A model generated the notes under the pieces. The model was given only the letters and a program-made list of their open reading frames with translations, did not search any database and was not told the origin of the DNA. Position numbers and translations under genes: made by a program. A DNA stretch of 64,000 nucleotides from a virus, in IMG/VR virus record IMGVR_UViG_3300025699_000004; one strand, given 5' to 3'. This document shows, piece by piece, positions 12,552 to 31,398 of this stretch. Numbering within the stretch: the stretch's first letter is position 1; each line of letters opens with the position of its first letter.

Positions 12552-12553
12552 TA

Positions 12554-13330: not shown

Positions 13331-13346
13331 CCTTTATCCTATAATA

Positions 13347-13730
13347 TTATACACCATATTCTTTCCTGATTCTTTTTAAAAAATTACAAAGAGATTTTGT
13401 CGCTTTTTTGAGATTTAAACTTTTCGGTATATATAAATTACTCTTTTTAGTTTTAAAGCTATAAACAAAATAGGGCACCATTAATTCTTCAGAATGAATA
13501 ACATCCTTACTAGAGAAGCTTTCGTCAAATTCTATATGAGAATGATATAAACCAAAAATTTGAAATTCTTTCTTCAAATCTAAGTAATCCTTTATAGATA
13601 TTTCGAAGTTCTCAAAACGTCTACTTGCTATATTTTCACACTTTTTTAACTTTACTTTTTTATCAAAATAAATTATACCACATTCTTCATTTTTAAAATC
13701 TGAAAATTGTTTTTTTATAGCCTCTTTCAT
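13347..13730 (-). CDS. JAB/MPN (JAMM) domain tail assembly protein, gpK N-domain-like (127 aa)
   Basis: EECG plus intact H-S-H-x7-S-x2-D (YHSHIEFDESFSSKD); lies between L and I. Confidence 0.88.
   Translation of the reverse strand: MKEAIKKQFSDFKNEECGIIYFDKKVKLKKCENIASRRFENFEISIKDYLDLKKEFQIFGLYHSHIEFDESFSSKDVIHSEELMVPYFVYSFKTKKSNLYIPKSLNLKKATKSLCNFLKRIRKEYGV
13349..13354 (-). promoter_or_regulatory. GTGTA motif
   Basis: GTGTAT upstream of the I-like gene, but overlapping the last codons of the JAB gene. Confidence 0.35.
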
Positions 13731-14638
13731 TAAAAAATTCTGCTTCCTGGGAACCCTCCAAACGGCAAATGCTCCCCATCATCCCCCTTAAACCTAAACT
13801 TGCATCCCTTTAATTTTTTGGAGCATTCGTCTGCAGCCCAAAACTCAGTACTCACGGTGGGTCTGTTTTCTGAATCGGAATTGTTATCTGACACACAAAT
13901 ATAAAAAACCTTCCTTAATTTACTCCCTTCGGTAACCTCGACATAAACAAAATCTCCTTTTGCATAAGCTATAGATTCTTGCCATTGCCCCCTGTCATTT
14001 AAAACCGATGTAAACAAAGCGTCGTTAGCATCAGCTACAGGAGGCCCAGAGTAACCGCAGCTCTCTCCTCTATACTTCCAGAAGCAATAATTGTTTATAA
14101 CCTGCCTCCTAGGTACTTTTAAATTTTCTAGGTCTAAAGGTGAAATCAACTCATACTCAACAAATATTTTATTTTCAGATGACTTTCTATTAATTATCCA
14201 GTTTTGATCTTCAAGCTTTGAAGTCGGGTCAGGATTGATCCCAAGAGAGTTCCAATAATCTATATCCTTATCATAATTTATAAAATTATCTTTATCCAAA
14301 AACCTTAAAAAAGTTCTTTCTCTTCTTACTTTCGCTCCCAATAAGTCTTCCTTATCTTTTATATAACCAGAGAAGAAACCTTTTAAGTTAATTAATTTCA
14401 AGGAGGGTCTAGCTAAAGATCCACTCGTTTTTAAATCAAACCCTTCAGCTTCAAAAGGTAAATACTTATAAACATTCCCGCTAAATATAATGTTTTTATT
14501 AACTTCACTAACACCTCCGTGAAATCTAATGATATCAGTAGTATTAGGTATATCGTATATAGTGTAAAAATCTATTAAAAGATTCGGGTCATTTCCGAAA
14601 AGTTCTCTATTTATATTCTCTGTTTTTCGACTTGTCAT
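13730..14638 (-). CDS. Minor tail protein, lambda gpL-like (302 aa)
   Basis: G..Y..LPFEAEGF, RPSLKL.N, Cys motif CFWKYRGESCGY...DECSKKLKGCKFRF, ends PFGGFPG. Confidence 0.93.
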   Translation of the reverse strand: MTSRKTENINRELFGNDPNLLIDFYTIYDIPNTTDIIRFHGGVSEVNKNIIFSGNVYKYLPFEAEGFDLKTSGSLARPSLKLINLKGFFSGYIKDKEDLLGAKVRRERTFLRFLDKDNFINYDKDIDYWNSLGINPDPTSKLEDQNWIINRKSSENKIFVEYELISPLDLENLKVPRRQVINNYCFWKYRGESCGYSGPPVADANDALFTSVLNDRGQWQESIAYAKGDFVYVEVTEGSKLRKVFYICVSDNNSDSENRPTVSTEFWAADECSKKLKGCKFRFKGDDGEHLPFGGFPGSRIF

Positions 14639-14660
14639 TCAATTATATTTTAAATTTTTT

Positions 14661-16382
14661 TTAAAAAACTTCCAATATCTTAACTCTTACTGTATGGTTG
14701 TTTTTGAAAACATAGTTGTGATTAACTCCTCTACATAAAAATGTACCTTCCTTCACATAAGGCTCTTTTATTTTAAAATTAAATTTTTTAACACCCATTC
14801 TATAAACATAAAAATTGAGAACCTCTAATAATTCCTCGTTATTTAAATTATTATACGTTAAGTCATAGGAATTGGCCAAGGAATTTATTCCATCACTTTC
14901 AGTAAAATTTCTAGAATTTCTCGATGCGAATCTTTGGGATTTCAAATTGGTTGTTATAGGTAATGAATGGGACGGTTTTATTCCTAAGGAGTCCGCTGAT
15001 CTTGCTCCAGATATAATCTGTCTTTGCGATTCTGGCATGCAAGGCATTTCCAATATATTTTTCATAGAAAAAATAGACAAGTTTTCATTAACTAAAAACA
15101 TGCTTACATCATTATTATCTTTGAATTTTTTATCAACATTCAAACTTTCACATCTAAAATCTTGTACGAAATATGGAGGAACAGAATATAATGATTTATA
15201 AGCCTCTTGATTAGTCAGACCTATTCTATCTTTAACTTGATAAGGAAACTTCCCGTGACTACCAGCATTTTCAATGTATGTCGATATACCACTGGCTTGC
15301 TCGTCTGATTTATCTGTAAAATTTAAATTCATAGAGAATCTAATATTATTTAAGTGTACAGGATCAAAAGATGAATAACTTTCGCCGTATTCAATAATGT
15401 CATTATCAAAAGATATATCTACAGATGAACCATAAGACGGAATATAATTAAATGGGCTCTCATATGTGAAGTTTTTTAAAGTTGAATCGGTTCTTATACC
15501 ACTTGAGAATTGTTCGAAATTATTGTAAAACCCCCCTGCCGAATTAACGCTTTCATCAAAGTAAGATTTTTTTAAATCCCAAAATTTTCCGCTTTGAAAA
15601 GACTCGTCGCATATATCTCTAGGGCTAATCGTAGCAGGTTTAGCCTCAACTTCCAGGAGTGTAAATCTCCAATTATTCCTCGACGCACCCCAAAAGGAAG
15701 CGGTCTCAGTAAGGATATAACTACTTCCATCGCTCTCCCAACCAGAAGTTATGGTTTTAATTACTGATGTTCCAAGCGCTAAATTCTCAATCTTTATTTT
15801 TTTGATTCTAAAATTAGTCGCATTAGTAGATAGCATCCTGAAGTGTAAGCTTTTCATTCTTGCTGGCTCAACTTTCACATACTTATGAACATTTTCAGAT
15901 AATGATTGGTTAAACAATGGCGACACACCAATATTGTCATCAGGAATAACCTGCATGGTTACTAATGCAAATCTGCTGGTAGAAAAAACTCCACCATAAG
16001 AAGGGTCCACGTCGAATGTTACTATATCAGCATCGCTAATACTCCTAGCTTCAATATTCCAGACTGAGTCTGGCTCAGATCCAAATGTATGCCTAGCACT
16101 CCATCCAAGGTAATTCGTCATTGTTCCATTTAAAAGAGGTCCCCAACCAGCATCTGTCGTGTTAGTTATTAATAATGAGTCTATGTGTTGTCCATTTGGA
16201 TGAGTTAATCTAGAATATGCCCAGTTAGCTCCAACAGTTGTGGATGTTTGCCCGATTGATAATTCTTGAATAACATTCCAAGACGAATCAAGAAGCTTAA
16301 GTCTAAGTAAAGAGCTGTCGTTTATAACTCCGCCAGGAGTCCCTGCTCCGACATTGTTTATAAAATTTACAGTATGTGCCAT
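14661..16382 (-). CDS. Distal tail protein with C-terminal gpM-like domains and an extra N-terminal domain (573 aa)
   Basis: Two gpM-like segments (YGESYS..D..HLNNIRFSMNLNF; DGINSLANSYDLTY...GVKKFNF); lies directly upstream of L. Confidence 0.6.
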   Translation of the reverse strand: MAHTVNFINNVGAGTPGGVINDSSLLRLKLLDSSWNVIQELSIGQTSTTVGANWAYSRLTHPNGQHIDSLLITNTTDAGWGPLLNGTMTNYLGWSARHTFGSEPDSVWNIEARSISDADIVTFDVDPSYGGVFSTSRFALVTMQVIPDDNIGVSPLFNQSLSENVHKYVKVEPARMKSLHFRMLSTNATNFRIKKIKIENLALGTSVIKTITSGWESDGSSYILTETASFWGASRNNWRFTLLEVEAKPATISPRDICDESFQSGKFWDLKKSYFDESVNSAGGFYNNFEQFSSGIRTDSTLKNFTYESPFNYIPSYGSSVDISFDNDIIEYGESYSSFDPVHLNNIRFSMNLNFTDKSDEQASGISTYIENAGSHGKFPYQVKDRIGLTNQEAYKSLYSVPPYFVQDFRCESLNVDKKFKDNNDVSMFLVNENLSIFSMKNILEMPCMPESQRQIISGARSADSLGIKPSHSLPITTNLKSQRFASRNSRNFTESDGINSLANSYDLTYNNLNNEELLEVLNFYVYRMGVKKFNFKIKEPYVKEGTFLCRGVNHNYVFKNNHTVRVKILEVF

Positions 16383-17149
16383 TATCTAACCCTCTCTGTT
16401 ATGCTAATTGATCCACCTAAGACATCTCCCTTTGATACCGAAAGGTTCTGGGAATATATCACCCCCTCACACTCTATTACCTCGCCCCTTCTGGAGTTAT
16501 TCATTGATTTGGGGGTTAATGAAACCTTAGCTATATTCTTTCCTGAAAAATCAATAAAAGATCCTATGTTTTCGCCGTCTATAGAAAGGCTTTTTGTGAC
16601 CGTTCCATACCTAACACCGCAAGCGAATTCACTTCCTATTTCATAACTCGGCACTCTTTCACAATCAACGGAATAATTTATTGAAACAGGGTAATCAATA
16701 CCGACATTAATTGAATCTATATTATTAATATCAGTATAAGCCCCGTTGGCGAAGTCTAATGCATTTCCAGAAAAAGAATCTGGAGTTATAGAGCTTTCAT
16801 CGTAACCGCTAAATATAGAGAAATTCGCCGAAAAGACAACTGGCACATAAGGCTCAATATCTACAGAATATTTATTTAGATATGCTCCAGAAAACTTAAT
16901 TCCACCAAAAGATCCGCTGCATGAATGGTCTCCAGTGAGTGATGATATATGATCTTCTAGACCAGTCACATAATAACTAACATTCAACGATGCACTCAAT
17001 GCTGCATTAGCCCTATAATCCACAGAGTTAACCTCTATTGGTTTACTAGGAGCCAAGGAGGCATCAGCGTTTAAATCCGCAGATAAACCGAGCATTTTCT
17101 TGCCATTGATCTCGACCAAGCATTCGTTATATTTTATATACTTACTCAT
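16382..17149 (-). CDS. Tail tube-like / baseplate-proximal structural protein (255 aa)
   Basis: Position between TMP and tip genes; internally duplicated beta pattern (SVNYSVDCERVPSYEIG) resembling the tube protein. Confidence 0.5.
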   Translation of the reverse strand: MSKYIKYNECLVEINGKKMLGLSADLNADASLAPSKPIEVNSVDYRANAALSASLNVSYYVTGLEDHISSLTGDHSCSGSFGGIKFSGAYLNKYSVDIEPYVPVVFSANFSIFSGYDESSITPDSFSGNALDFANGAYTDINNIDSINVGIDYPVSINYSVDCERVPSYEIGSEFACGVRYGTVTKSLSIDGENIGSFIDFSGKNIAKVSLTPKSMNNSRRGEVIECEGVIYSQNLSVSKGDVLGGSISITERVR

Positions 17150-17970
17150 ATATATCTTATACTCGGTGGGTTATGGGTAGACAAAGAATAACTGAGAGAT
17201 ACAGTTACTGAATTTTCCGTAGATGCAGATAAAACTTCAGAAGTTAATTTAGCTCCGCTTAGATTATATATAATTTTTTTATTAATGTCACACTTATCTG
17301 ATAAAGAAATTTCTATATTTTTCTCATGTATTCCTGTTTTTATATAACCATAAAGATCTCTAGATTCATAATCATCAACTTCTATATTAACTGCGAAGTT
17401 ACATCTATAAGGAGTCATTCTTAAAACTTCACATGGATAAAAACTCCCTATTTTAAATGCTGGTTTATTTTCTAATGAAATAGAGTAAGAAAAGCTTGTA
17501 ACTCTATTAGTTTGCCTTCCATCGCAATTTATCATTATACCACTAGACGCAGGGACAAATGGCCCCTGTTGCTCTCGTGTGTTGCTAAAAACCACATTAG
17601 GCCCCATATCGCCATACACATCAAAAGATATTGAAGAAGACGGTATCTCATCAACTTGAAATGAAGCAGAATAAGAAGATAGAAATCCACTATTAAAAGC
17701 TAATTTCCTATTATTATATAAAACTGCTCCTCCAAATCCTGAGCCAGTAACTAAGTCAGTTATCTCTTCGTCAGATGTCAACATCTGTTTCTCGAAAGAA
17801 AAATTAGCCCTACCAGGAGCATTTTGTATTAAATTTGGATCTCCCTCGTATCCTAAAAATAAATTCTCTTGAGTTGGTATCGAATAATTACCCCTTACAG
17901 AAGATACCCCAGATAATTTTGTGCCATCAATCACGAAGCCCTGATCTTCAGTATAAACCAAGCCTTTCAT
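17146..17970 (-). CDS. Tail tube-like structural protein (274 aa)
   Basis: LSGVSSVRGNYSI, SGFLSSYSASFQVDEIPSSSISF resembles GFLSDYSLDASVGSIPSVSSTV of the tube gene at 29836-31398. Confidence 0.55.
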   Translation of the reverse strand: MKGLVYTEDQGFVIDGTKLSGVSSVRGNYSIPTQENLFLGYEGDPNLIQNAPGRANFSFEKQMLTSDEEITDLVTGSGFGGAVLYNNRKLAFNSGFLSSYSASFQVDEIPSSSISFDVYGDMGPNVVFSNTREQQGPFVPASSGIMINCDGRQTNRVTSFSYSISLENKPAFKIGSFYPCEVLRMTPYRCNFAVNIEVDDYESRDLYGYIKTGIHEKNIEISLSDKCDINKKIIYNLSGAKLTSEVLSASTENSVTVSLSYSLSTHNPPSIRYI

Positions 17971-17971
17971 T

Positions 17972-20900
17972 TTACCTCAAGGAACCGCCTACTCTTTTTT
18001 CTTGTTGTATTACTTGCAATACCGCAGCTTTTACTTTTTCTGCAAATTTCTTTGGGTTTTCTGGAGAACTTCCGCCTGAAGAGGTTTTTGCTGACCCAGA
18101 AGAATCTACATTAACATTGATATTAACTTCGTTGTTATTATTAACACCTTGAGCGCTTGATCCTGACGAACCAGTATTTAAAGTTCCATTGTTTATTTTA
18201 GACATCGTGGAGCTTCCGTACTTGTTAACGGCAGAAGGATTCATTACGTATTCTCCTCCCTGAAGCATCGCTGGAACTTTCCCCCCAGAAGAGTTATATA
18301 TAACTCTACCGCTCTTACTTATGCTTGTTTTAATCCCTGACTCTTGAGCCGCAATTGCTGCCTGAGTCGGATTTTGTTTAGCCATTCTGTTTATAAACGA
18401 CTTGGCCGAATATACATCATCTGGATTTTGGTAGACCTTACCAATAGAGTTTCCCTTTGTGTTGACAAACCCTTTTTTATCCATTTGTGATGTGACCCCT
18501 TTTCTTGCCCTGGATTTTGAAAAATCTGTATTCTTATACCAATCCATTCCCTTTGATAAAGCAACACCTCCCGCTATACCTAACAATGCACCCTGCCAAG
18601 CTTTTCTTTTTTGAGTGCGAGCCCTTTGGTAATTCTCATCTCTGCTTTTCCTTTGCTTAACGGTCTGAAGGTCTTGCCTGAATTGATTTTCCTGCTCGTC
18701 AAAATACTCTTGAATAGTTCTGTCGTTAGCTCTTGCGTAACCACTGAGCCTAGAGTCCATTCCTGTATCCGCGCTTTTAGTCTTGTAAGTAGTTATATCT
18801 CCGTATTTACTTTCATCTACCACGGCTTCTCTAACAGCTGCTCTTGGAGAACTCATTGATAATGATACGGGCCCTCCTTTGGCATATCCAGATATTTCTC
18901 CATTATTTAATTTATTTAAAAAATCAGATCCGTATCTTTGAACAGCGCTTTTCTTGATAACATATTCTCCGCCCATCAGCATTGCTGGAACATCATCTCG
19001 AACACCACTACCTCCTGAGACATAACCGCCTTCAGCTTTCCCTAAACCAAACAAACCTTGCATTCCTCCCACCAACCTACTAGAAGCACTTTGCAAAAAT
19101 GCTTGTTGTACCATTTGCAACAAAGATATTCCAATTTCTTTTATTTTTCCACTTAAATCGTCCGCTTTATTTAAAGCTAAAGTCATGGCGCTAGTAAGCC
19201 CATCCCTAAATGCAAAAGGAAGATCCTGCCCAAGCTTTACATAAATAGATTCTGCCTGAGAATCCAAAGCGGCAAATCCTTGACCAAGGCCTAGATTCAT
19301 GTTTGTTCTAAACTCATTTCCAAATCCCCCATCCCTAGGAGTGACTCTTTCCATTTGCCCTGTCAATTCAACAATCTGTTCCTCCAAGCTAACCATTGCT
19401 TCTGCAGCTTTCCTCCTTTCTTCTGAACCTATAGCAGAATCACTAAAATTTTTCGTTTCGCTTACGAAATCTTTGTTCATTTGTATAAGAGAAGATCTTT
19501 GTTTTACAGTTCCTATGCTTTGCCTTCCTGCGGCAAGCCTTGCATTTTGCACCTCCAGCCTACTTGCTCCTGGATCATTTTGCAAAACCTTAAAAGCTTT
19601 TTCCGCTTCGGCTTGCTTGGCTATCCTGTCAATGCTTGATATTCTTCCCGCCGAAACATTATCCATGTCTCTTAGGTCGTTCAATCTATTAATTGATCCT
19701 CTTGATCCAGACATCACCCTGAAATCAGCCACTTTATTTTTTAAATTTGTGTTTTTTAGTGTGAGATTGTTTGCCTTCTTAAATGCGTCTTCCGCTATAA
19801 TCAAAGCTTCAATACCTTCTATAGCAGTATCTATTTGAAGTTCCAACTGTTCCCCAGAATCTCCACCTTTAGCAGACATTGTCTTTAGCTCTTTTAATTT
19901 ATTCTTTGAATTTTCAAGCCCCATTGAATCAAGTGAAATTGCCTCGACTTTTCCTGCAAAAGCATCGGTACTCTTAAAATTAATTCCGCCATTGGGGTTC
20001 ATCATCTCCCTGGTTACTTTATCAACTTCCGCTTGAACATCTTTAAGAGTTATAACCTTTTGATTTGCTGGATCGGTTGACACTCGTTCAACTTGTTTTT
20101 GAGCGTCTCTAAGTTTTTTCTTATTTCTTAATACTTCTTCTCGTGCTGACGTATCAATCACTCTACTTGCATTTAATTTTGCTTGAGTATTTTTTAGATC
20201 TTTTTCAGCTTTATCCATTTCTGTCTTGAGGTCTGTTACTCTTCTTGGCCCGATTGCCTGACCCTTACCCGCTTCGTATCTTTCCTCTGCTTTTGCAAAC
20301 GCTTGCTTGTCTACATTTAACATATCTCCCAAAAATTGTTTCCTGCTTCCAGTATCGTTAGCTTTTTTTTGGGATGAATTCAATTCTTTTTGAATATTAG
20401 TTCTTTTTGAGATGGCTTCCTTTTTCTTAAGTAATCCAGTTTCATTTAATCCTAAATTTATTTTCTTATCCAGATTGGGGGGATTTTTTCCAGTCAGAGG
20501 CTCTAGTAAATCTTTAACAGCACTTCCTAAATTATTTAAAGCAAAAATCACTTTTTGGTCACTTAATAACCTTCTTATTTCCATCTTTGCTCTGGCCGCT
20601 AATTCTTTACCCTGGATCGATTCTTGCTCTTTAAATATTTTTTCTTGAATATCAGTTTGTCTTCTATTCTCTTGCCTAGTTGAGCCAGATCTAAATATAC
20701 CATCTTTTTCAAAATTTAAATTTGCTTGAGTTAACTTCGATTTAGCTTGAGCCCTAGCTATCGTATTATCTTCTTTCGATGCATTAAAAGACATCCTCAT
20801 TGATTGAGTCGTCATTAATTCATTAATTCTTGCTGAAATAATATTTTGAGATTCTTGCAATATAAGAGCTTCTTGTTGAACTTTTATTTTTTCTAGTTCT

Positions 20901-23900
20901 AATTCTTTTTGTCTGTCAATTACAGAAATTATATCTTGTATAACTTTAATAGTTGCATCGTCAGTTTGTTTCTCAAAATCTAAATTAAACTCAGCTCCCT
21001 GGGCGAACTTTCCGCCCACACCTGCTTTTGCTGCGTCCGCCAGTTTGATAGTTAATTTATTTATCTGTTCATCGGAAAGAGCGACTAAGTCCCTAAGCTC
21101 GCTCATGTCATCTCTGTTCTTAAGATTATTCCTTATGCCATTGGGAGTCCCTATAAATGATTTCCGCATCTTATTGATCTGTTCGAGCCTAGCTTCAGGA
21201 GTCTCCGCTCCACCCAGAATATCCATCGTTCCAGTTATTTTTCCAGAATTCAACTGATCTCTTAATACTTGAAACCCTTCAGTTGCTACTTTATTAAGTA
21301 TCGCTGCTTGCTGGGTAATTTGTAAATTAGTTCCTTTTAATTTTTGCTGAAACTTTGTCGCAAAACCTGCTCTAGAATTTAAGTCATTAGCTTCGATTTG
21401 AGATGATCTCAACGCTTCAGTCGAAGATATTGTTCTTCTTGACATTCTTTTTTGAATATCAGAACCTTGGAATCCCGAAAATTGAGACGAAAATCTTATT
21501 GCACTATTTTGTCTTTGTCCAACACCAGCTGATCTTATCGACTTTATTTGAGCTTCTTGTTTTAAATTAGCTATAGTCGTAGCAAAAGCTTTATCTAAAT
21601 TAAATATCCTTCCAGATAACTTTTCACTCTCTTTCCTCATTTTAAGATTAGCTTCTACAGTTTTTTCTGTTGATTTTAACAGAGCATCGAATGATTGATC
21701 TCCTTTGTTGTAGGCCGCTATTAAAGATTGAAACTGCCTATCTGTTAGTGCCGCAGCTTCAGCTAGCTTGCCAAGATGTTGAGCGGCATCAGCTTCCTGG
21801 TCTCTTATTATTTCTAGTTCAGTTTTAGCGATTTCCTGTTCTCCATATTGTCCCACCGCATACCCCGCAGATGCGCCCGCAGCCATCGTTGCTCCTACCG
21901 CAGTGAGACCCAAGGAGGCTCCAAAAGTAGGTATGGCTGCTAGTGCGCCAACTACTGCGAGACCTATGCCCGCACCTATTCCTAGTCCCCATCCGCCCAA
22001 TCCTTCGAAAGTTCCTACATCTCCACTCGCTCTTCTTTTTATACCTTCTAATTCTTCTGGAGTTCTCAACAAACCTTTAGAGCTTAATTCTTTTCTTTGA
22101 TTTCTTATTCCAGCTATAGCGTCCTTAAATTTATCCTCTTTAAGTAAGCCTGAAGAAATTTGTTGGGCGACAATATTACCAAAAGCTAAACCTTGAGACT
22201 TTGAGTCTTTATTTTTTGTTGCAACTGAAAAATTTTGAATTGATGCGTCTATGCTTAATCTATCTTGAAGCCTTTTGTTCAAATTTTTCATTGCGTCAGC
22301 ATTGCCCATAGCATTAGACATTTCGTCAAAAACTTCGACATCAGCAATCTGTCCCAATGTGGCATTTATAGCCGCGTCAATTCTTTTCAACCCTTGTTCA
22401 TCTCCTTGCCCAAACGCTGTAGCTCTTGTGCCCATTAATCCTTCTAATTGAGTTCCAGCCTGAACACTTCTACTTAAAAGTTGCAATTGCTTTTCTTGTT
22501 TTTGAACTATTTCATCTATAGAAAGAGTCATCTTCTTTGATGAAGAGACAAAACCTATTGCTGCTCCAACTAGCATTCCAGGTAAACCGAAAAGAGCTCC
22601 TATACCTGCCCCCATCATTGTTGAGGACATTCTTTCTTTATCTCCACCCTCTGTTATTTCAAAATTACCGCTTTGCTGATTAAAAGTAGCTCTTTCATCC
22701 CTCGCTCTTGTTGGAGAAACCATTCCAGCTAACATAGGTAATGCAAAAGATAGGCCTAGCCCAAGCTGGCCTCCCATACCGCCCATCTTTCCAAAACTAC
22801 CAAGAGCCCCTTTACCTCTTGTAACTAACCCTCCCGCTCTATTAGCTATACCTGACCCCATCCCACCTTGACCAGACATTCCTCCAAAAAAACCAGCTCT
22901 TATATTATTACCTCTAGCTAAGTGTGATTGAGCTTTTGCCGCAAATCCAGAAGGCTGTGCTCTTTGCTGCTGGGCAGCGTTAACGACCTCTTTCCTTACC
23001 GCCTCCAACCTCTTGAAAGCTGCGGGATTCGCCGCTATTCTTGCAGCTTCTTTTTGAAGCCCTTTAGTTAAACTTTTGATTTGTTTTTTATTACCGTCTG
23101 CAACAGCTTTTTCTAAGGATTTTAAATCTCTTGTAAATCCAGTAGAGGTTGTTCTTACGCCTTTTTGGTCTGTAGTTAATTTCCCGAATTCGCCCTTCAT
23201 TAAACCTCCTCTAGCCAGAACACCCGAAGAAGAAGTGACTCCTGCTGAAGCTGCGAATTTAGAAAAATCACTAGCTGCCCCTCTGCCTCCAGCCATCATT
23301 ACTGAATTCATCGCTTTAGTTCCCATGCCTTCGGTATTAACTCCTTTTTGCCCTAAGTAATCCCGAAGAAATACTTTATTTAAATCTGACTTAGAATACC
23401 CTTTTGTTCCAAACACCCTATCGGAAACCTTGTTCATAGCCGCTTGATTAGCTATTCCACTGCCCAATTGCTGGCCCAAGAATTTAGGCGAATTCATAGA
23501 TGCTTTTGCTGATTTGTCTAAAGTTTTATTCAGGTTCTGTAAAGCTCTTAATGTAGTATTATCCCCAGAGGCTTTAGCTGTAACCATTTTTTCCTTCAAC
23601 ATGTCTTCGTTAAGCTTTCCTCCGCTCATAACGCTAGACATTAAAGGGCCAACTCTGCTATCTTTCATCATTGCTTGAGCAGCATCGTTTCTAAATAACT
23701 GCCTAGCAAAACCTTTATTTCTGTCGCTTAAATTTCCCCTGGATGATTGAGTCCTGACTTCAGCCTCTTTAGCTGATTTAGCTGTATTACCAAATGAAAT
23801 AGCTGCTTTTTGCATTTCGGCTTTTAATTTTTTAGAGCTTGCAGTAGCAGCATCTATTGCTTGGCTGGCATTATAAAAAGATTTCTCCATAGATTTCAAA

Positions 23901-26900
23901 CCCATAGATTCATTAGTCTTATAAGCCATTCTTTTGTTCGCCAAAAAATCTTGAGCCGTTAGTGGAGTTGCATAATTTGGAATCACTCCTTTCGATGAAC
24001 CCTGTCTTGGATTTAATCTCCCATGCAATTTTCTAGCATTCGCTAGCTTTCCGCCTTCTTGCTCGTTATTAACCACAGCAAGCCCAGGATTGGTAAGGCT
24101 TTTTAGAGATGGAGCTGTTACAACTTTAGGAGTTACGCCAAAAGATGCTTCTCTCGATACAGCATTAGACACGGCGTTTGTGAATTCAGGTTTTGTAGAT
24201 AATACATCTCTTGCTCCTGGACCAAATAAGCTATAATTAGGTATATGCCCGTCGCCTTTCAATCCAAACTTCCTTCTTGTTCTAGCGCTTAACGGCTGGC
24301 TAAATAAATTTCTATCAAAACCAGAGCCGCGCGGAGCACCTGTTTGTTTTTTCTTCTCGAAAAGGTCTTTATAAATCTTGTTTATTCTATCTGACTCAAC
24401 CCCCGCTAAAGTCGCAGCCCGCCTAGCTGAATAATTTTCTTTCTCCATTAAATCTTGAGCTTTTATAGAAGCGATCCCGCCTTTACCCAATGCTGAGCCC
24501 AATACAGCGTCTCGTGCCGACATCCCAGTTGAGTTGCCAAAAGAAGCTCCTTGATTTATTCCTATTATATCTCGCAATAATCCAGAATCTACAGCTCGAC
24601 GTGTAATAGCCTCATCCCCTCTAAATCTTCCGCTTGTCGCACCAAATTTATTATTTACAGTCTTAAGATTACCATCTTTATCTATATATTGCGACCCAAG
24701 GGCAAGCCCTCCTGATCCCCCTGGAGCTCTTGGATTGCCTGGGTTACCCAGTCTTGATAAAGCAGTTAGGACGTCAGGGTTTGATCTGGAAAGGTTGTGG
24801 AAAAGTCTTTTGCGCTTATCTAAATTGCTTAAATTTCTTTCTGGATCAAAAGGCAATCCAAGTGGGATCTTAGGTGCCATAGCTTCATTTTGACGAATAA
24901 GATGCGCCATTGGTATGTTCATTCTAAAAGAAGGATCAAGAACATGGCCACTTCCCCTCGTTTGTTTAAAAGCTTTTTGTATATACCCTTGAACAGACCC
25001 GCTCTTTGATCCAGGAGACGATGCTCCAGCAGTTAAAAAGTCTTCTCTTATTAAACTTAACCTGTCTTTCTTTTTTTGCCCAGGAATTAGGCCATCATCA
25101 ATACTTTTTACTCTTGGTATCATTCCATGCTTAGACATGAAATGTTTTTTCTCATCTGCTGTTAAGGCGGATTCTATTCCTATGGAAGTAGATTTTCCAG
25201 TGATATATCTAAAAAAAGATTTCATAACATCAGGGTTCTGCAGGATTTCTCCCTGCCTTTTATTGCTTAAATAATCTAATCCTAATGTATTAGAACTTCC
25301 TTTTGGGAAATTTGACTGAAAATCCTTCATTGACATTCCAGGATAAGATCCTTTAAAGTCAAAAATCCCCTCCTTGACATACATTTTCATAGCCTGTTTC
25401 AATTTCTGCTCAGGCATAAACTCTAAAGCTTTCAGAAATGATATTCGATCCCCCGTTCTTGGCATTGACATGGGGAGATTTTTATCATAATGGAAAGCTG
25501 AATAATTTGGAACGAATCCAGAATTTGCCATATTTGGATCAACTTTTAAATGCTTTCCTTGAGATACGACACTTTGAATTCTATTTAACTTTAGTTTTCT
25601 AAATGCATCAGCCCCTTCACCTGTTGATCCGATCCACATAGAGCGGGTGCCTGTAGCTTTATCCATTTCTCCATAAGAAACATAATTGCCAGGAGGAGGT
25701 GCTCCTTTTTTATATTTATTTACTCCCCATCTAGCATTTTTATAAGTTAAATCGTTGCCAGCTTTAGATGTATAGTTTAAAGATTTAAATAAGCCAGTTG
25801 TTAAGATATTATCCAACTCCTTCATTCCTATCGTATCATCAAACTTATTTGAATGTATTTTGCCTTGCCCTATACTTTTAATTTTATTCGCATTTAACCT
25901 CATTCCAAAATTAGGAACGAACCCTTCGCTAGTGCTCATGTCCCATTTTCCTGGTTTGTCTATTCTCAAACTGCCAAACATATTTTTTGGTATTAAAGTA
26001 TGAGGAAAAAGATGAGGAGGTATCGGTCTATCAGGTTTCATATAGCCAGATTTCCAATACATCATGGCCGCTTTCTCCATCATTGAAGGGCTAAGGTCTC
26101 TAAATCTTTTGCCTACAGATCTTCCTGATGAAACTTTTGGAGTAAAATACTTTTTAGGCCCAGGATTTCTCAAACTTGCATTCATCTCATCAAGCCAAGT
26201 ATTCATAGCTTTATCATCCGAATTCATTTGAGAAGGTAAACCTTTCCCCCTTCTTGCGAAATTAGGAATATGCCCGCCCGACATTCCTATTTTTTCTAAC
26301 ATTGCTTTGGGTACATTATTAGCTGATCCAAAATTATTAGGACCTCCTTTTACTCTTAACATTCCTATTGCGACTTTTTGCAAATCATCAGGAAGGTCTC
26401 TTATGCGTAAGTTTCCTCTATGTTTCCCCTTCGCTTTTAAGTCCGAGCCCACCTTGTTGTCTTTCCTCGTCTTATTCATCCTTAAGATATCGTCGGCCAG
26501 TGTAAGGCCCAAGACAGAGGCGGGAAGGGCTCCTCCAAGCACGGCAGATATTAAGTCTATATGGCTTGTTGGGTTTTGAAATACATCTAAAACTCCCTTC
26601 CCTAATTTTCCGCCCATCTCAAGAGCTTTAGGTCCATATTTACCTACAGCCCCCATGATTTGATCTTGAAATTTATACCCTAAACCTCCCCCTCCTCCAT
26701 AAAGAGTTGCTCTAGGAAATTTCTTCATAAGATCAAAACCTTTGCCTAATCCATGTTTTCCAGCTTCAAAAATGTTGGTATATGCATTATACCCCCCCTT
26801 TGCAGTGCCAATAATACCTCTCCTTATAAGGTCGCCGCCTTTATCAGCTATATTATACCCCCCTTTTAACAAAGAGCCTATATCTTTAAAAGGTGTGCTT

Positions 26901-29746
26901 ATTAATTTTCCTGCAGCGCCGAGTCCTTTACCCAAGAAATCTCTATCTGATGTTTTTGGCTTCTGCCTTCTAAAAAGATTTCCTAATCCGTAATTAGGAA
27001 CATGACCTTGATTTGATATCTTATATGTATAATTCTCGCCTCCCCACATTCCATTTTTTTCACCGATATCTTTTCGGAATTGTAGATCTCCAGCCTTTTC
27101 CACTTTAAATTTCTTTCCCTTGGCTATGCTATCAACAACTCTCATTGCAGAAATAGAAGTTCCTATATCTCCATATAATCCAGTGTATCCATTTTTTCTT
27201 GAATATTCAGCCATATGCTCGTACAAATCTTTTCCGTAACCTTTTCCTCTTAAAGATGGGTTGGCTTCTGAAGTCATTATTACCTGTAATGCTCTTTTGT
27301 TTGGATCTTTAAAGTCGGCGATATCTATAACATGAGATGTTGCAAAATTTTTCCCACCCACACTGGACTCAAAATATACTTGCTTAGGAGGTCCGTACTC
27401 ACTTGGCCCATCATCTCTAACCTGGGTTTTATATTTAGCTGGAATTCTTGCGCTTGCATAATTAGGAACATAACCCCCGCTGTAAGGCATTGGCAATTTC
27501 CTCGAAGACCTTCTAGCTCCGTTTAATGACTCCACCATTCCATAAACTAAATCTCCGCTACCTCCCCAAGACTTAGGAACATTTGCTCCGAAATTTCTAA
27601 GGGCAGCGTTAACATCATGCCTCATTTGGTCTCCCTTTCCCACTATAAAATTTTTGTAAATTTTCTCCCTAATGGAATTCATTTCAGTGCCCGTTGCCAT
27701 AGCTGGGCCATACGAGTGCCAAGTGTCCTTTAATTGTTTGTTGGGAGCTACCTGAAGACCCATGGCTGTTTTTCCTCCATAAATCAATCCTCTTGCTATA
27801 TTAGCGGCACTTTCTGGAGAGTACCTCATGGCGGCATAGTTAGGAATGTGTCCCTGATTTGCATACGGATTAAACCCATGAACTTTTTTAAATGCTTTTG
27901 TATAATTTTTTCCAGCATTACTTCTTTTAGGAGGCATTATTGCTGGCTGCTTCATCCCAGGGAAAGCTCTTACCGATTCAGCTGTATTATAAACAACCCT
28001 ACCCTGACCAGGCATGTTCATCGATTTCACAGCTCCAGGATTATAGCCAGCTGATTTAGCTCCTGCTCTTTCTGCGGAAGCCTCTTCTTTAGACGGATAA
28101 CCCTTAACAAGATTAAAGTTAGGAATGTGCCCTTCGCTCCTTGTTCTTTTTAAATTTTGATTAAACCCAGCTCTCATTACCGCTGGCCCTATAGCCGCAG
28201 CTGCAGCTGCAATTTTTTGCTGTTCCATTGATTGAGCTCTCAAAATCCCCAATATAGTTTTTTCTTGCGCGGCTCGATTTCCTTCTTGCGATAATATTTT
28301 TTGTTGAAGAGCTGAATTCTCAGAAAGTACAGCAACAATTGTTTTTTGTATTTCTTTTTGTTTTTGAGCTACCGTTGTGATTCCCAAAAGCTCTTTCATA
28401 CTACCCGCTAAAAATGAAAATGTTTTTCCAAAAAGTTTAACTAACACACCTAAGAAACTAAGCATGACTGGGCCAGCCAACACATTTCCGATACCCTTGA
28501 TTAACCCTCTTCCTATATCAGCCCCGAAACCTTCACCTGCTGATAAAAATTCTGCAGCGTTACCAAAACCATCTTTAATTATATTTAGAAAGAATCTTAT
28601 GGGCTCATCAAAAGCTAGTTTACCCATTACTGCACCCAATTGTTCTATAGAAGTAACTGTTTGAGAAGTTAAAGCCGCTATAGTCTGATTAAGAAGTGCA
28701 TTTTTTCTATAAGCTTCATCTGTAGCTTGACTTGCTATTTTTGTAGCTCTAGCTAAAATACTATTCTCTTCAGATAAATCTTTGATTGCCGCTTTTAAAA
28801 TATTGATTTGAAAAACTCCACCTACTTGCTCGGCAACAGCCGCTTTCGTTGTGTCTGCTAATGTGTCGTATGTTTTTGATAAATTTTCTAAGACTCTTAT
28901 GGCTGGTAGCGTATTTCCAGCTATATCTCTAACTGCTATGCCAAGCTCTTCAAGCCTTTGGATGGTACTCGCTCTTTGCACCCTAGTAAATATAGTCTTA
29001 AAACTATTACCTATAACTTTACCTCCTCTAGCAGTTTGTTGTTGAGCTGCGGTAACGGCGCCTAACAGCTGATCGAAACTAACTCCAGCATCTTGAGCTA
29101 CAGCACCAGCTCTTGCTATACCATCAATTAAATCTTCTGTACTAACTGCAAATTGAACATCAACAGCAGCCATCTTACTTAATATTTTTGTCGAATCTAA
29201 TCCAGCTTTATTAAATGTATTAATTGCCGCAGTTAAACCAGAAACCGCATTTGCTGCATCTAAACCAGTTAGCCTAGTTAAAATCAGGGCATCGTTAGTT
29301 CTTTTTAAGGTTTCTTCCATTGATAAACCCTGCCTTGCCAATTCAGTAGCCGCAGTAGCTACAGTTGAAAAGCTTTGAGCTGTATTTTTAGCCACTTTGA
29401 ACAAACCTCTGCTCATTTCGTCAAGTTCTTTATTGGTTACTCCCATAACCACATTAATTTCAGCTAATTTCCTCTCGACTTCTACTGTAGATTTTATCAA
29501 AGCGGAGAAAGCTCGTTGTACACCCTGTATAATTCCAACAGATGCACCAAACGCTAAAACTCTGGCATTAGATGCATCTAGTGATTTATTAAATTCACTT
29601 ACAGACCCCGTTATTTTACCAAGAGGCCTTGTAAACTGTTTGTCGTTTACAGACAGGTTTAACCCTCCCCTTCTATTTACGCTACTTACAGCTTTTCTAA
29701 TAGAAGCTTCTAGGCCCGTTTGAACTGTTTGAACTTTTAATGGCAT
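17972..29746 (-). CDS. Tape measure protein with an internal module array (3924 aa)
   Basis: N-terminal TP901-type core (ELARQGLS..ETLKRT..AL.L, GNSFKTIF.R), Gly/Ala hydrophobic segments, coiled coils, C-terminal DDVPAML.GGEYV motifs; lies downstream of the tube gene. Confidence 0.93.
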   Translation of the reverse strand: MPLKVQTVQTGLEASIRKAVSSVNRRGGLNLSVNDKQFTRPLGKITGSVSEFNKSLDASNARVLAFGASVGIIQGVQRAFSALIKSTVEVERKLAEINVVMGVTNKELDEMSRGLFKVAKNTAQSFSTVATAATELARQGLSMEETLKRTNDALILTRLTGLDAANAVSGLTAAINTFNKAGLDSTKILSKMAAVDVQFAVSTEDLIDGIARAGAVAQDAGVSFDQLLGAVTAAQQQTARGGKVIGNSFKTIFTRVQRASTIQRLEELGIAVRDIAGNTLPAIRVLENLSKTYDTLADTTKAAVAEQVGGVFQINILKAAIKDLSEENSILARATKIASQATDEAYRKNALLNQTIAALTSQTVTSIEQLGAVMGKLAFDEPIRFFLNIIKDGFGNAAEFLSAGEGFGADIGRGLIKGIGNVLAGPVMLSFLGVLVKLFGKTFSFLAGSMKELLGITTVAQKQKEIQKTIVAVLSENSALQQKILSQEGNRAAQEKTILGILRAQSMEQQKIAAAAAAIGPAVMRAGFNQNLKRTRSEGHIPNFNLVKGYPSKEEASAERAGAKSAGYNPGAVKSMNMPGQGRVVYNTAESVRAFPGMKQPAIMPPKRSNAGKNYTKAFKKVHGFNPYANQGHIPNYAAMRYSPESAANIARGLIYGGKTAMGLQVAPNKQLKDTWHSYGPAMATGTEMNSIREKIYKNFIVGKGDQMRHDVNAALRNFGANVPKSWGGSGDLVYGMVESLNGARRSSRKLPMPYSGGYVPNYASARIPAKYKTQVRDDGPSEYGPPKQVYFESSVGGKNFATSHVIDIADFKDPNKRALQVIMTSEANPSLRGKGYGKDLYEHMAEYSRKNGYTGLYGDIGTSISAMRVVDSIAKGKKFKVEKAGDLQFRKDIGEKNGMWGGENYTYKISNQGHVPNYGLGNLFRRQKPKTSDRDFLGKGLGAAGKLISTPFKDIGSLLKGGYNIADKGGDLIRRGIIGTAKGGYNAYTNIFEAGKHGLGKGFDLMKKFPRATLYGGGGGLGYKFQDQIMGAVGKYGPKALEMGGKLGKGVLDVFQNPTSHIDLISAVLGGALPASVLGLTLADDILRMNKTRKDNKVGSDLKAKGKHRGNLRIRDLPDDLQKVAIGMLRVKGGPNNFGSANNVPKAMLEKIGMSGGHIPNFARRGKGLPSQMNSDDKAMNTWLDEMNASLRNPGPKKYFTPKVSSGRSVGKRFRDLSPSMMEKAAMMYWKSGYMKPDRPIPPHLFPHTLIPKNMFGSLRIDKPGKWDMSTSEGFVPNFGMRLNANKIKSIGQGKIHSNKFDDTIGMKELDNILTTGLFKSLNYTSKAGNDLTYKNARWGVNKYKKGAPPPGNYVSYGEMDKATGTRSMWIGSTGEGADAFRKLKLNRIQSVVSQGKHLKVDPNMANSGFVPNYSAFHYDKNLPMSMPRTGDRISFLKALEFMPEQKLKQAMKMYVKEGIFDFKGSYPGMSMKDFQSNFPKGSSNTLGLDYLSNKRQGEILQNPDVMKSFFRYITGKSTSIGIESALTADEKKHFMSKHGMIPRVKSIDDGLIPGQKKKDRLSLIREDFLTAGASSPGSKSGSVQGYIQKAFKQTRGSGHVLDPSFRMNIPMAHLIRQNEAMAPKIPLGLPFDPERNLSNLDKRKRLFHNLSRSNPDVLTALSRLGNPGNPRAPGGSGGLALGSQYIDKDGNLKTVNNKFGATSGRFRGDEAITRRAVDSGLLRDIIGINQGASFGNSTGMSARDAVLGSALGKGGIASIKAQDLMEKENYSARRAATLAGVESDRINKIYKDLFEKKKQTGAPRGSGFDRNLFSQPLSARTRRKFGLKGDGHIPNYSLFGPGARDVLSTKPEFTNAVSNAVSREASFGVTPKVVTAPSLKSLTNPGLAVVNNEQEGGKLANARKLHGRLNPRQGSSKGVIPNYATPLTAQDFLANKRMAYKTNESMGLKSMEKSFYNASQAIDAATASSKKLKAEMQKAAISFGNTAKSAKEAEVRTQSSRGNLSDRNKGFARQLFRNDAAQAMMKDSRVGPLMSSVMSGGKLNEDMLKEKMVTAKASGDNTTLRALQNLNKTLDKSAKASMNSPKFLGQQLGSGIANQAAMNKVSDRVFGTKGYSKSDLNKVFLRDYLGQKGVNTEGMGTKAMNSVMMAGGRGAASDFSKFAASAGVTSSSGVLARGGLMKGEFGKLTTDQKGVRTTSTGFTRDLKSLEKAVADGNKKQIKSLTKGLQKEAARIAANPAAFKRLEAVRKEVVNAAQQQRAQPSGFAAKAQSHLARGNNIRAGFFGGMSGQGGMGSGIANRAGGLVTRGKGALGSFGKMGGMGGQLGLGLSFALPMLAGMVSPTRARDERATFNQQSGNFEITEGGDKERMSSTMMGAGIGALFGLPGMLVGAAIGFVSSSKKMTLSIDEIVQKQEKQLQLLSRSVQAGTQLEGLMGTRATAFGQGDEQGLKRIDAAINATLGQIADVEVFDEMSNAMGNADAMKNLNKRLQDRLSIDASIQNFSVATKNKDSKSQGLAFGNIVAQQISSGLLKEDKFKDAIAGIRNQRKELSSKGLLRTPEELEGIKRRASGDVGTFEGLGGWGLGIGAGIGLAVVGALAAIPTFGASLGLTAVGATMAAGASAGYAVGQYGEQEIAKTELEIIRDQEADAAQHLGKLAEAAALTDRQFQSLIAAYNKGDQSFDALLKSTEKTVEANLKMRKESEKLSGRIFNLDKAFATTIANLKQEAQIKSIRSAGVGQRQNSAIRFSSQFSGFQGSDIQKRMSRRTISSTEALRSSQIEANDLNSRAGFATKFQQKLKGTNLQITQQAAILNKVATEGFQVLRDQLNSGKITGTMDILGGAETPEARLEQINKMRKSFIGTPNGIRNNLKNRDDMSELRDLVALSDEQINKLTIKLADAAKAGVGGKFAQGAEFNLDFEKQTDDATIKVIQDIISVIDRQKELELEKIKVQQEALILQESQNIISARINELMTTQSMRMSFNASKEDNTIARAQAKSKLTQANLNFEKDGIFRSGSTRQENRRQTDIQEKIFKEQESIQGKELAARAKMEIRRLLSDQKVIFALNNLGSAVKDLLEPLTGKNPPNLDKKINLGLNETGLLKKKEAISKRTNIQKELNSSQKKANDTGSRKQFLGDMLNVDKQAFAKAEERYEAGKGQAIGPRRVTDLKTEMDKAEKDLKNTQAKLNASRVIDTSAREEVLRNKKKLRDAQKQVERVSTDPANQKVITLKDVQAEVDKVTREMMNPNGGINFKSTDAFAGKVEAISLDSMGLENSKNKLKELKTMSAKGGDSGEQLELQIDTAIEGIEALIIAEDAFKKANNLTLKNTNLKNKVADFRVMSGSRGSINRLNDLRDMDNVSAGRISSIDRIAKQAEAEKAFKVLQNDPGASRLEVQNARLAAGRQSIGTVKQRSSLIQMNKDFVSETKNFSDSAIGSEERRKAAEAMVSLEEQIVELTGQMERVTPRDGGFGNEFRTNMNLGLGQGFAALDSQAESIYVKLGQDLPFAFRDGLTSAMTLALNKADDLSGKIKEIGISLLQMVQQAFLQSASSRLVGGMQGLFGLGKAEGGYVSGGSGVRDDVPAMLMGGEYVIKKSAVQRYGSDFLNKLNNGEISGYAKGGPVSLSMSSPRAAVREAVVDESKYGDITTYKTKSADTGMDSRLSGYARANDRTIQEYFDEQENQFRQDLQTVKQRKSRDENYQRARTQKRKAWQGALLGIAGGVALSKGMDWYKNTDFSKSRARKGVTSQMDKKGFVNTKGNSIGKVYQNPDDVYSAKSFINRMAKQNPTQAAIAAQESGIKTSISKSGRVIYNSSGGKVPAMLQGGEYVMNPSAVNKYGSSTMSKINNGTLNTGSSGSSAQGVNNNNEVNINVNVDSSGSAKTSSGGSSPENPKKFAEKVKAAVLQVIQQEKRVGGSLR
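23972..28132 (-). repeat. Nine dispersed G-[HYFV]-[IV]-P-N-[FY] linker motifs in the TMP
   Basis: In-frame copies at 28115-28132, 27836-27853, 27458-27475, 26990-27007, 26258-26275, 25907-25924, 25502-25519, 24233-24250 and 23972-23989. Confidence 0.92.
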
Positions 29747-29835: not shown

Positions 29836-31398
29836 CTATTTCCTTGGAATAGCGACGTGATCAGGAATGTCCACTCTATTGGCTCCTGAAATAAATACGC
29901 CGTGAAGTTTATCTTCTGGACCACCGATTTGGGTGGTGAAAGATAAGTCTACAGATTTATTACTACCAATGTCAGAGCTGATAGATTCACTATCTATTCT
30001 CGCTCCTTTGAAATCAATAATCATTGAATCTGTCGCATCTCCGACTCCGCAACTTTGATTAGCTTTCATTTTAACTTTGACATCATATTCGTCACAAGCA
30101 TCAATGATTTTTGCCAAGTTAGCTTCGTTAACTTCAGAAACAAGAGCGGAAACACTCATTGTTGCAACAACTGGAAAGTCTACAACTCTAGAAAATGCGA
30201 ACCTAGTTCCCAATCTGTCGATAGGACTTCTTGAGAGAGGTAATGAAAGACTAAAGTTTTGAATGTGAACGGATCCGTCTCCGCTTACATCAGTAAATAT
30301 AGAAAGTCCTGTCGGAATTTGCAATTCAATATCACCAGGCCTTAAAGCGGTAGCAGTAACATCTCCCGTAGAAGGAGCCGCTCCTTCACCATCACCCCTT
30401 AGGGTTGAGTGATGACCTACAGAGAAATTAATTCCTGTAACTGGCTTTCCGTCATCAAGAGTAACAGCTGGAATTTCTTTTCCAGTCGTTCCAATATCTG
30501 ACTTCGCATTAAAAAGTTCAACCGTACTAGAGACCGAAGGAATAGACCCTACAGAAGCGTCTAAAGAATAATCACTAAGGAAACCATTACCCAATGAAAT
30601 AACACTTCTTTCTGAAACTGAGCGCGTTGTATTAAAAGCATCAGTTCCTTCAGGAGTAGTTAAAATAAAGAAATTTCTTCCAGCACCATCATCTTGAAGG
30701 TGTCCAGATGAAGCATTAAGAATTGCAGTTCCCATTCCAACTCCCTTATTAGCTGCTCCTTGAATGTAAAATCCAAGATTTCTTTCGTTAAATCCGTCTG
30801 TTGGATAATAAGTGAAATCAAGATTTACTGTGGGTGGCTCAAGAGCGATAGCATCAATTCTAGCAAGCTGACCAAAAGTATTAACATCAGTTCTATTGAT
30901 AGAGAAGCTATAATTCGCGCTTTGTACTCTATGAATTTGTTGAACTAAATTTTCGTAATCTCCACTTATTGCTGGTTGAAGCATTACGCCAGTTGTAGAC
31001 GCTCCAGCCCCCGCTGTTACTGAAGTATCAGCAAATGTCTCAAAGCTCGATTTTTTTGTGAACAGAGCTGCGTTTCCTTGGCCCGCTGCTGTTCCATTAA
31101 TAGCTTGAATCAAATTGAAACCAGGCATCGCAGCTTTTACCGCCCCACTTATATTAACTAAATCAAATTCTTCAGGGCTTGCGGTCAAACTAGTAGAAGG
31201 CGTAACGTCGAACTGCTTTGTTACTTGTGGGTCTTGAGTTAATCCAATAGGACTAACAGGCATAACTGCTGAATGCCACTCGTTCAAGCCTGGCCCACCC
31301 TTCCCAGTTAAGACTCCATTACATATGAAGTGCGCTCCTGTCGAATTAGGGCTAACGAATACCGCTTCACTTTGATATATTACTCTATTTCTTGCCAT
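29836..31398 (-). CDS. Major tail tube protein (520 aa)
   Basis: RVQSANYSFSINRTDVNTFGQLA, PPTVNLDFTY, FKGARIDSES; upstream of the TMP; followed by a strong terminator. Confidence 0.8.
   Translation of the reverse strand: MARNRVIYQSEAVFVSPNSTGAHFICNGVLTGKGGPGLNEWHSAVMPVSPIGLTQDPQVTKQFDVTPSTSLTASPEEFDLVNISGAVKAAMPGFNLIQAINGTAAGQGNAALFTKKSSFETFADTSVTAGAGASTTGVMLQPAISGDYENLVQQIHRVQSANYSFSINRTDVNTFGQLARIDAIALEPPTVNLDFTYYPTDGFNERNLGFYIQGAANKGVGMGTAILNASSGHLQDDGAGRNFFILTTPEGTDAFNTTRSVSERSVISLGNGFLSDYSLDASVGSIPSVSSTVELFNAKSDIGTTGKEIPAVTLDDGKPVTGINFSVGHHSTLRGDGEGAAPSTGDVTATALRPGDIELQIPTGLSIFTDVSGDGSVHIQNFSLSLPLSRSPIDRLGTRFAFSRVVDFPVVATMSVSALVSEVNEANLAKIIDACDEYDVKVKMKANQSCGVGDATDSMIIDFKGARIDSESISSDIGSNKSVDLSFTTQIGGPEDKLHGVFISGANRVDIPDHVAIPRK

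Follow-up and report, generated by a model that had tools for sequence, protein, structure and literature searches.

A recombining, motif-delimited array of modules in the tape measure protein of an uncultured marine phage

How the first minutes of an infection go, in terms of both host defences and takeover, is settled by the pre-made proteins which come into the host cell with the phage genome. Pre-made proteins of this kind have so far come mainly from phage heads, and include the internal proteins of T4, the virion RNA polymerase (vRNAP) of N4 and the polyvalent proteins. The T4 internal proteins are pre-made, host-directed, carried in the virion and injected, and a short peptide which they share serves as both a targeting and a cleavage signal. 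The present work analyzes a 64-kb window (the whole stretch of DNA under study) of an uncultured marine phage, IMGVR_UViG_3300025699_000004, in which the tape measure protein (TMP), encoded on the minus strand, carries an array of eight unrelated modules delimited by nine copies of the hexapeptide G-x-[IV]-P-N-[FY].

The closest described systems are found both inside and outside the phage world. The MARTX toxins of Vibrio and its relatives consist of one giant polypeptide, in which conserved flanks form a membrane-crossing device and the centre is taken up by an array of unrelated effector domains, which come from a common pool and vary among strains by recombination; the unstructured linkers between the domains are cut to release them (PMC6315884, PMC4453568). 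The polyvalent proteins, known from phages and from conjugative elements (Iyer et al. 2017), are also giant and combine several conflict-related domains, including GNAT domains. It has been suggested that they are injected along with the DNA and then processed to smaller pieces, yet the paper which describes them mentions neither tape measure proteins nor a delimiting motif (PMC5512222). Among the tape measure proteins themselves, pb2 of phage T5 has an enzymatic domain embedded in the TMP, and a cleavage during maturation separates this domain from the body of the ruler. The protein forms a metastable trimer in the tube lumen with its C-terminus in the tip, and is expelled at infection; the cleavage occurs after R1127, between the body and the peptidase domain, and both parts remain in the tail (PMC10038345). 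Known TMPs with embedded domains carry one, rarely two, which are directed at the cell wall and occupy a fixed place, with no repeated motif or shuffled array. Sle1, from the contractile injection systems of actinobacteria, is a TMP-derived carrier within a tail-like tube, and its exchangeable domain differs between species (PMC13277306).

In the TMP of the window (P0001), nine copies of G.[IV]PN[FY] are present, compared to 0.004 expected from composition. Their positions (Table 1) and spacings (93, 126, 156, 244, 117, 135, 423 and 87 amino acids, aa) match exactly those of the original prediction, which was made from the letters of the sequence and had claimed that the protein holds no other copy; none appears when the window is read in all six frames. 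A position-specific scoring matrix (PSSM) of 10 positions, trained on relatives, gives the nine sites 22-31 bits and the next best site of the protein only -10.5, so that the count is unambiguous. Relatives were collected in two sets: a search with aa 530-1930 of the TMP yielded 98 giant TMPs of 2200-5600 aa from marine and other metagenomes, and a search with the conserved N-terminus and the first module, F1, yielded 210 viral contigs, 80 of which were retrieved. In all, about 180 metagenomic relatives carry 2-13 motif copies. The logo built from 571 copies has the consensus A-[SAN]-x-G-[FLHY]-[IV]-P-N-[FY]-[AS], in which G and P are invariant, N is present in 97% and an aromatic residue in 100% of the copies, and conservation ends at +/-3. 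The flanking DNA of 91 loci, 582 kb in all, holds no copy in its six frames. A general tag for virion proteins is ruled out by this result, and any partner of the motif would be expected to act on the TMP specifically.

The assignment of the array-bearing protein as the tape measure protein of a lambda-like siphophage is derived from its sequence matches and gene context. PF10145 matches aa 118-310 with an E-value of 5.5e-25 (88.8 bits, against a cut-off of 33.2), PHROG TMP families match with a best E-value of 1.9e-51, and homologues of lambda gpM, gpL, gpK, gpI and gpJ lie directly downstream, at 5640-16382. The position of the gene is also fitting, between the tail tube/chaperone position and the tail-tip genes, and the genes upstream of it are without a family.

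Within the N-terminal third of this protein, the array is a recombining "beads-on-a-string" insert of eight independently evolving modules, which follow one another in the order F1-F8-F7-F10-F23-F3-F4-F2. Profile-profile comparison places them in eight mutually unrelated families, as expected from the earlier claim that the modules do not resemble each other. The array is enriched in proline (5.8%) and aromatic residues (8.3%) compared to the TMP body (1.5% and 4.9%, respectively), and each module has an isoelectric point of 9.3-10.4, yet the whole TMP is likewise basic.

The relatives exhibit extensive polymorphism of this array. In the first set, 97 of the 98 TMPs carry 2-13 motif copies, the first of them at aa 540-650, and the segments between the motifs cluster into 122 families, of which 67 are singletons. 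Arrays such as F1-F8-F8-F3-F4-F11-F10-F2 (P0003), F1-F11-F4-F3-F37-F10-F8 (P0009) and F1-F3-F7-F4-F2 (P0020) illustrate the diversity: close relatives share families in differing order and number, and distant ones draw on other families. The constant modules F1 and F2 frame this variable interior. F1 comes first in 64 of the 98 relatives and in most of the 91 loci, F2 comes last in 58 of the 98, and a minimal form, F1-X-F2, occurs in TMPs of 2100-2300 aa, with a single module X of 250-310 aa. The original prediction had proposed to test whether the flanks are conserved while the inner modules differ in number and identity, and the metagenomic relatives bear this out; identical modules in a fixed order are not what is seen, since families are permuted, gained and dropped. 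Among uncultured phages of marine and other aquatic origin, such arrays appear widespread. Among the cultured phages of the collection searched, similarity to the TMP is restricted to aa 64-462 (~27% identity), and the array itself has no relatives there by blastn or tblastn.

Variation of this extent may also be understood as length stuffing, in which the added residues serve mainly to tune the length of the tail, or as the result of selfish or neutral in-frame insertions, the motif marking junctions which tolerate them. Such a view accommodates the finding that in a close clade the part of the TMP outside the array is nearly constant, at 2537-2925 aa, versus an array of 598-2064 aa, and that modules are dispensable between close relatives. 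It does not readily accommodate the strong conservation of the module cores, with 47 invariant columns in F7 and a mean column identity of 53-68% for F3, F8 and F7, nor the retention of a catalytic-type loop, the confident globular models for two of the modules (both described below), or the conservation of the motif across TMPs which share only about 40% identity. On this evidence stuffing is an improbable explanation.

The exchange of modules can be traced to the motif itself. The relative P0002 has 93% nucleotide identity to the window and is without exactly one module, F23; its junction, GGG CAT/GTT CCT AAT TTT, is composed of the left half of motif 5 and the right half of motif 6. Over all relatives, 57% of the BLASTP alignment ends which fall in the array lie within 8 aa of a motif, compared to 9% at random. 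The F3 module is 64% identical to that of the window in P0002 (N-terminus 99%) and 91% identical in P0003 (N-terminus 76%), and by these comparisons the modules have separate histories. The array of another locus, L020 (IMGVR_UViG_3300031519_009791), reads F1-F8-F23-F3-F4-F7-F11-F62-F23-F3, with the pair F23-F3 present twice and its two F3 copies representing distinct alleles, which are 90% and 59% identical to the F3 of the window. This array looks like an intermediate of module permutation. Both neighbour orders, F3-F4 and F4-F3, occur among the relatives, and because an in-frame inversion of the DNA cannot give this pair of orders, unequal crossovers between the motif-coding repeats, whereby a duplication is followed by a loss, are inferred. 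Modules may also fuse. A decayed motif, K-L-Q-I-P-N-F, in the loci L008 and L030 identifies a family member as a module fusion, and the F4 of the window, with its relict GMIPRV, probably consists of two older modules fused after decay of the motif between them. As judged from the aligned sequences, whole modules are gained, lost, replaced and reordered by crossovers inside the motif. The notion of a polymorphic cassette platform, which was part of the original prediction, is supported by the one-module indel in P0002, the permuted pool, the clustering of breakpoints and the replacement of F3 alleles.

A crossover inside the 18 bp which code for the motif, as in P0002, raises the possibility that the motif is a recombination site at the level of the DNA, resembling an integron attC or served by a dedicated recombinase, with the peptide as a by-product. 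A slight excess of NTT-CCT codons would be in keeping with this, I and V in the motif somewhat favouring NTT. However, the codons for G, N, F and Y follow the background usage of the gene, and their synonymous positions vary as in its remainder. Moreover, position 2 of the motif varies (H, F, L, Y), so that the DNA in common is only about 8-11 nt, and no recombinase is adjacent among the neighbouring genes. Since the motif codons follow the background, selection acts on the peptide and not on the DNA, and a signal for recombination at the DNA level is disfavoured to the point of being highly improbable.

The modules differ in the extent to which their fold can be recognized. F7 is a GNAT-fold domain, predicted from its sequence and model to be acetyltransferase-like, in support of the earlier claim that at least one module is enzyme-like. 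Its loop R-G-K-G-Y-G, which corresponds to the pyrophosphate-binding motif A (Q/R-x-x-G-x-G/A), is invariant in all 17 homologues (17/17). PF00583 matches the F7 of the window with 19.3 bits, below the gathering score of 20.7, and all 17 members of the family weakly, with a best E-value of 5.8e-5; the top PDB profile matches are all acetyltransferases. Two modules, F7 and F3, were modelled by AlphaFold, each with both flanking motifs included. The F7 model has a mean predicted local distance difference test score (pLDDT) of 81.3 and a predicted template modelling score (pTM) of 0.79, residues 1-5 and 157-162 being low. Foldseek relates it to 130 PDB chains at E<=1e-3, and among the matches listed almost all are GNAT-superfamily acetyl/acyl-transferases or acyl-homoserine lactone (AHL) synthases, with template modelling (TM) scores of 0.41-0.57. 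A further 48 viral models match at E<=1e-3, mostly GNATs, including the GNAT parts of polyvalent-type proteins.

The model of F3 has a core with a pLDDT of about 85, residues 1-25 and 136-141 being low. Its matches are weak but consistent, and its resemblance to an Sm/WYL-type barrel is a lead only: the best Foldseek E-value is 0.17, and VIA gives Z-scores of 4.2-5.3 over ~70 residues, below the reliable level of the tool, to the WYL domains of PafBC, CapW, BrxR and DriD. In the ESM Atlas it resembles small free-standing phage proteins (TM 0.54-0.56), and in one cluster (TM 0.56) 58% of the members carry PF10902, WYL_2. The motif-bearing ends of both models have pLDDT values below 50 around compact cores, so the motifs are predicted to sit in disordered linkers between the modules, with one conserved decapeptide per linker. 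A linker that forms part of one repeated fold, which would have spoken against a cassette array, is ruled out, since the two models differ in fold, the motif-bearing ends are disordered and the module families are unrelated.

The PDB sequence-profile searches gave no meaningful match for F1, F8, F4 and F3, and F1, F2, F8 and F23 are recorded as without a match. In the relatives, a staphylococcal nuclease (SNase) module, F20 (L056:9741-10364), is matched by PF00565 with 24.8 bits, against a cut-off of 21, and was the only one to pass when 20 representative modules were searched with Pfam, the other 19 being without a family; two TMPs of the 98-relative set also carry precomputed PF00565. An exhaustive profile search among 1.84 billion representatives retrieved 34 relatives of F3, nearly all of them giant TMPs in which the position of the module varies. 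None was a free-standing homologue, the short ones among the 34 matches having the appearance of gene fragments, and for F7 a word-based search returned, as the only free-standing case, one 158-aa fragment on a 2-kb contig. Because free-standing sequence relatives are lacking, there is no obvious sign that F3 and F7 were captured recently from ordinary genes.

The array may alternatively be part of the tail's own machinery for injection or assembly, whereby the modules refold in the periplasm or the membrane as a DNA conduit or anchor, or engage proteins of the host envelope. The motif would then be a docking contact, for example with the protein at the chaperone position or with the tube lumen, which keeps the non-helical segments ordered during assembly, and the turnover of modules would result from adapting to host envelopes or from evading immune sensors which recognize the TMP. 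Consistent with this proposal are the occurrence of F3 and F7 within TMPs only, the conserved membrane-helix-like segment in F10, the constancy and strong conservation of F1 and F2, the restriction of the motif to TMPs in the flanking DNA, and the lack of an enzyme family for most modules. An uncharacterized gene at the chaperone position, coding for 520 aa in the window and for 520-604 aa overall, is likewise common to all eleven relatives examined (11/11); searches of the 520-aa protein against Pfam, PHROG and the PDB sequences gave no match. However, neither an SNase module nor a GNAT fold whose acetyl-CoA loop is intact has an obvious role in a conduit, and deletion and reordering between near-identical phages are unexpected for an ordered machine. 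A mechanical role is the main rival of the reading favoured below, yet unlikely overall.

The reading favoured here, to which we would give an even chance as a whole, is that of a recombining array of delivered modules, with the motif recognized by one partner and processing of the linker as the leading candidate for its role. By analogy with pb2 of T5, the array, as part of the TMP, would be loaded into the lumen of the tail tube. The C-terminus of the TMP, at the tail tip, would exit first, and the array, from its place in the N-terminal third, would come out at the end, directly before the DNA. Riding in a protein that would be ejected at infection, the modules could serve as pre-made proteins, delivered to the envelope or the cytoplasm of the host before the expression of any phage gene; for the GNAT module a cytoplasmic site of action would be expected, since it needs acetyl-CoA. 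The motif would be the recognition site of one conserved partner, and the cut in the linker might come from a protease of the host or of the phage, or from self-cleavage at Asn triggered by assembly, thereby freeing the modules from the ruler in the way that T5 cuts its TMP between body and enzyme domain. With regard to the function of the motif taken separately, cleavage is a tentative assignment, a docking or packing contact is possible though rather doubtful, and some other function accounts for what remains. The boldest version, in which the decapeptide is a dedicated processing signal, every copy of the motif is cut after assembly or during ejection, and the tail lumen acts as a magazine which fires a customizable train of separate host-directed proteins ahead of the genome (acetyltransferase, nuclease, WYL-like binders and membrane-active pieces), with F1 and F2 as the loading frame, should be considered unlikely.

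Several observations weigh against delivery of the array as cargo. Most modules are without a recognizable enzyme family, and only one of the eight in the window is enzyme-like. The membrane-type helix of F10 and the poor conservation of F4 would suit cargo and a role in the envelope or in structure equally well, and because of these two modules, the one membrane-helix-like and the other heterogeneous, the label of effector, which in the original prediction stood for anti-defence or host takeover, is not established for every module. F3 and F7, being found only inside TMPs, could be integral parts of the protein. As to processing, searches of the TMP, to a limit of E<=1, and of seven neighbouring genes detected no peptidase family, although divergent ones could be missed, and strictly Asn-dependent self-cleavage is disfavoured since Ser replaces Asn in ~2% of the motif copies. 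By our own estimate, a tube lumen of ~4 nm would also leave little room for three folded copies of a 17-kDa domain.

The features of the window are collected in Table 1. Beyond the array, the body of the TMP carries a C-terminal repeat, V-P-A-M-L-x-G-G-E-Y-V...A-V-x-x-Y-G...L-N-N-G, present in two copies on the minus strand, at aa 3586-3620 (18887-18991) and aa 3824-3858 (18173-18277); one or two copies of it occur in 92 of 126 proteins. The possibility that F1 and F2 are copies of each other or of these C-terminal repeats was rejected (hhalign probabilities of 1.8%, 1.2% and 0.1%). Of the two conserved reading frames between the TMP gene and the gpM homologue, the first has a counterpart in the locus L007 with a faint match to Phage_tube_2.

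Table 1. Features of the 64-kb window, with positions counted from its first letter. A4, A5, A6 and A7 are the alignments of modules F4, F3, F8 and F1, respectively; ORF, open reading frame.
Feature	Position	Strand	Remarks
Motif 1, GHIPNF, aa 539	28115-28132	minus	
Motif 2, GHIPNY, aa 632	27836-27853	minus	
Motif 3, GYVPNY, aa 758	27458-27475	minus	
Motif 4, GHVPNY, aa 914	26990-27007	minus	
Motif 5, GHIPNF, aa 1158	26258-26275	minus	left partner of the P0002 crossover
Motif 6, GFVPNF, aa 1275	25907-25924	minus	right partner of the P0002 crossover
Motif 7, GFVPNY, aa 1410	25502-25519	minus	
Motif 8, GHIPNY, aa 1833	24233-24250	minus	
Motif 9, GVIPNY, aa 1920	23972-23989	minus	
F1, constant first module, about 87 aa	27854-28114	minus	A7, with 21 invariant columns
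F8, 120 aa, conserved	27476-27835	minus	A6; array position varies in relatives
F7, GNAT-fold acetyltransferase-like domain (predicted)	27008-27457	minus	RGKGYG loop, PF00583, AlphaFold, Foldseek
F10, 238 aa, 18% Gly	26276-26989	minus	conserved membrane-helix-like segment, aa 1065-1083 (26498-26554)
F23, 111 aa	25925-26257	minus	whole module missing from P0002
F3, compact alpha/beta core, weakly Sm/WYL-like	25520-25906	minus	A5
F4, 417 aa, heterogeneous, poorly conserved	24251-25501	minus	A4
F2, constant last module, 81 aa	23990-24232	minus	last in 58/98 relatives
Relict motif G-M-I-P-R-V, aa 1541-1546, inside F4	25109-25126	minus	PSSM; kept in part of the F4 family
TMP gene P0001	17972-29746	minus	single 11.8-kb ORF, 3924 aa; PF10145, PHROG TMP families, tail genes downstream
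PhageMin_Tail core domain, aa 118-310	28817-29395	minus	PF10145
Hydrophobic membrane-helix-like segment, aa 422-445	28412-28483	minus	Kyte-Doolittle window 19, score 1.98; just upstream of the array
TMP body, aa 1926-3924	17972-23971	minus	many helix-forming residues; hydrophobic segments aa 2328-2400 and 2587-2619; two C-terminal repeats
520-aa ORF at the tail assembly chaperone position	29836-31398	minus	upstream of TMP
Two conserved ORFs, 274 and 255 aa, between TMP and gpM homologue	16382-17970	minus	no family
gpJ-like central tail fibre protein, 2303 aa	5640-12551	minus	known families match aa 21-637 only
Large terminase gene	42186-44057		further along the window
ERCC4-type nuclease homologue	44388-45344	minus	phrog_3490, E 1e-12; adjoins the large terminase gene

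If the array is indeed delivered, long non-contractile tails would be another compartment for pre-made proteins besides the head, one that is large and can be reconfigured rapidly. Were cleavage at every motif to hold, it would constitute a new mode of protein delivery for such tails and a natural plug-and-play scaffold for foreign proteins in them; the motif marks a possible place for the in-frame insertion of a foreign module. It also offers a simple sequence handle, by which orphan module families in their hundreds could be mined for candidate host-directed proteins. Even if the modules belong to the injection machinery, a short linear motif which organizes modular evolution in a ruler protein is unreported in the literature searched, and the array bears on the relation of TMP length to tail length.

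The array may finally be set against the systems described at the outset. The T4 internal proteins, unlike the array, are encoded by separate genes, reside in the head and carry an N-terminal signal which is cut by the prohead protease at L/I-x-E. Conserved flanks together with a recombining central array, as in the MARTX toxins, the nearest analogue in function, are found in the phage TMPs. The MARTX proteins, however, are secreted bacterial toxins directed against eukaryotic cells, with RTX-type repeats and an internal inositol-phosphate-activated cysteine protease which cuts after Leu, whereas no Pfam family for such repeats or for such a protease domain is present in P0001, the carrier is a tail TMP, and the linkers bear the motif G-Φ-[IV]-P-N-[FY]; the likeness is functional and not one of homology. 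The polyvalent proteins are packaged in the head or transferred by a type IV secretion system (T4SS), and zincin-like peptidase domains typically carry out their processing (PMC5512222). They combine several conflict-type domains; the array has eight unrelated modules, with a recognizable enzyme fold in one and an SNase in a relative, and no associated processing peptidase was detected in the TMP or in seven neighbouring genes. Sle1 comes from a contractile system and not from a phage; it has one functional domain, at the C-terminus, and lacks a delimiting motif (PMC13277306). The original prediction knew of no described system with such a layout. This remains accurate insofar as no description of a motif-delimited, shuffled array of modules in a TMP was found in the literature searched, yet it needs to be qualified, since the MARTX toxins and the polyvalent proteins are close functional analogues, though neither are TMPs nor bear the motif.

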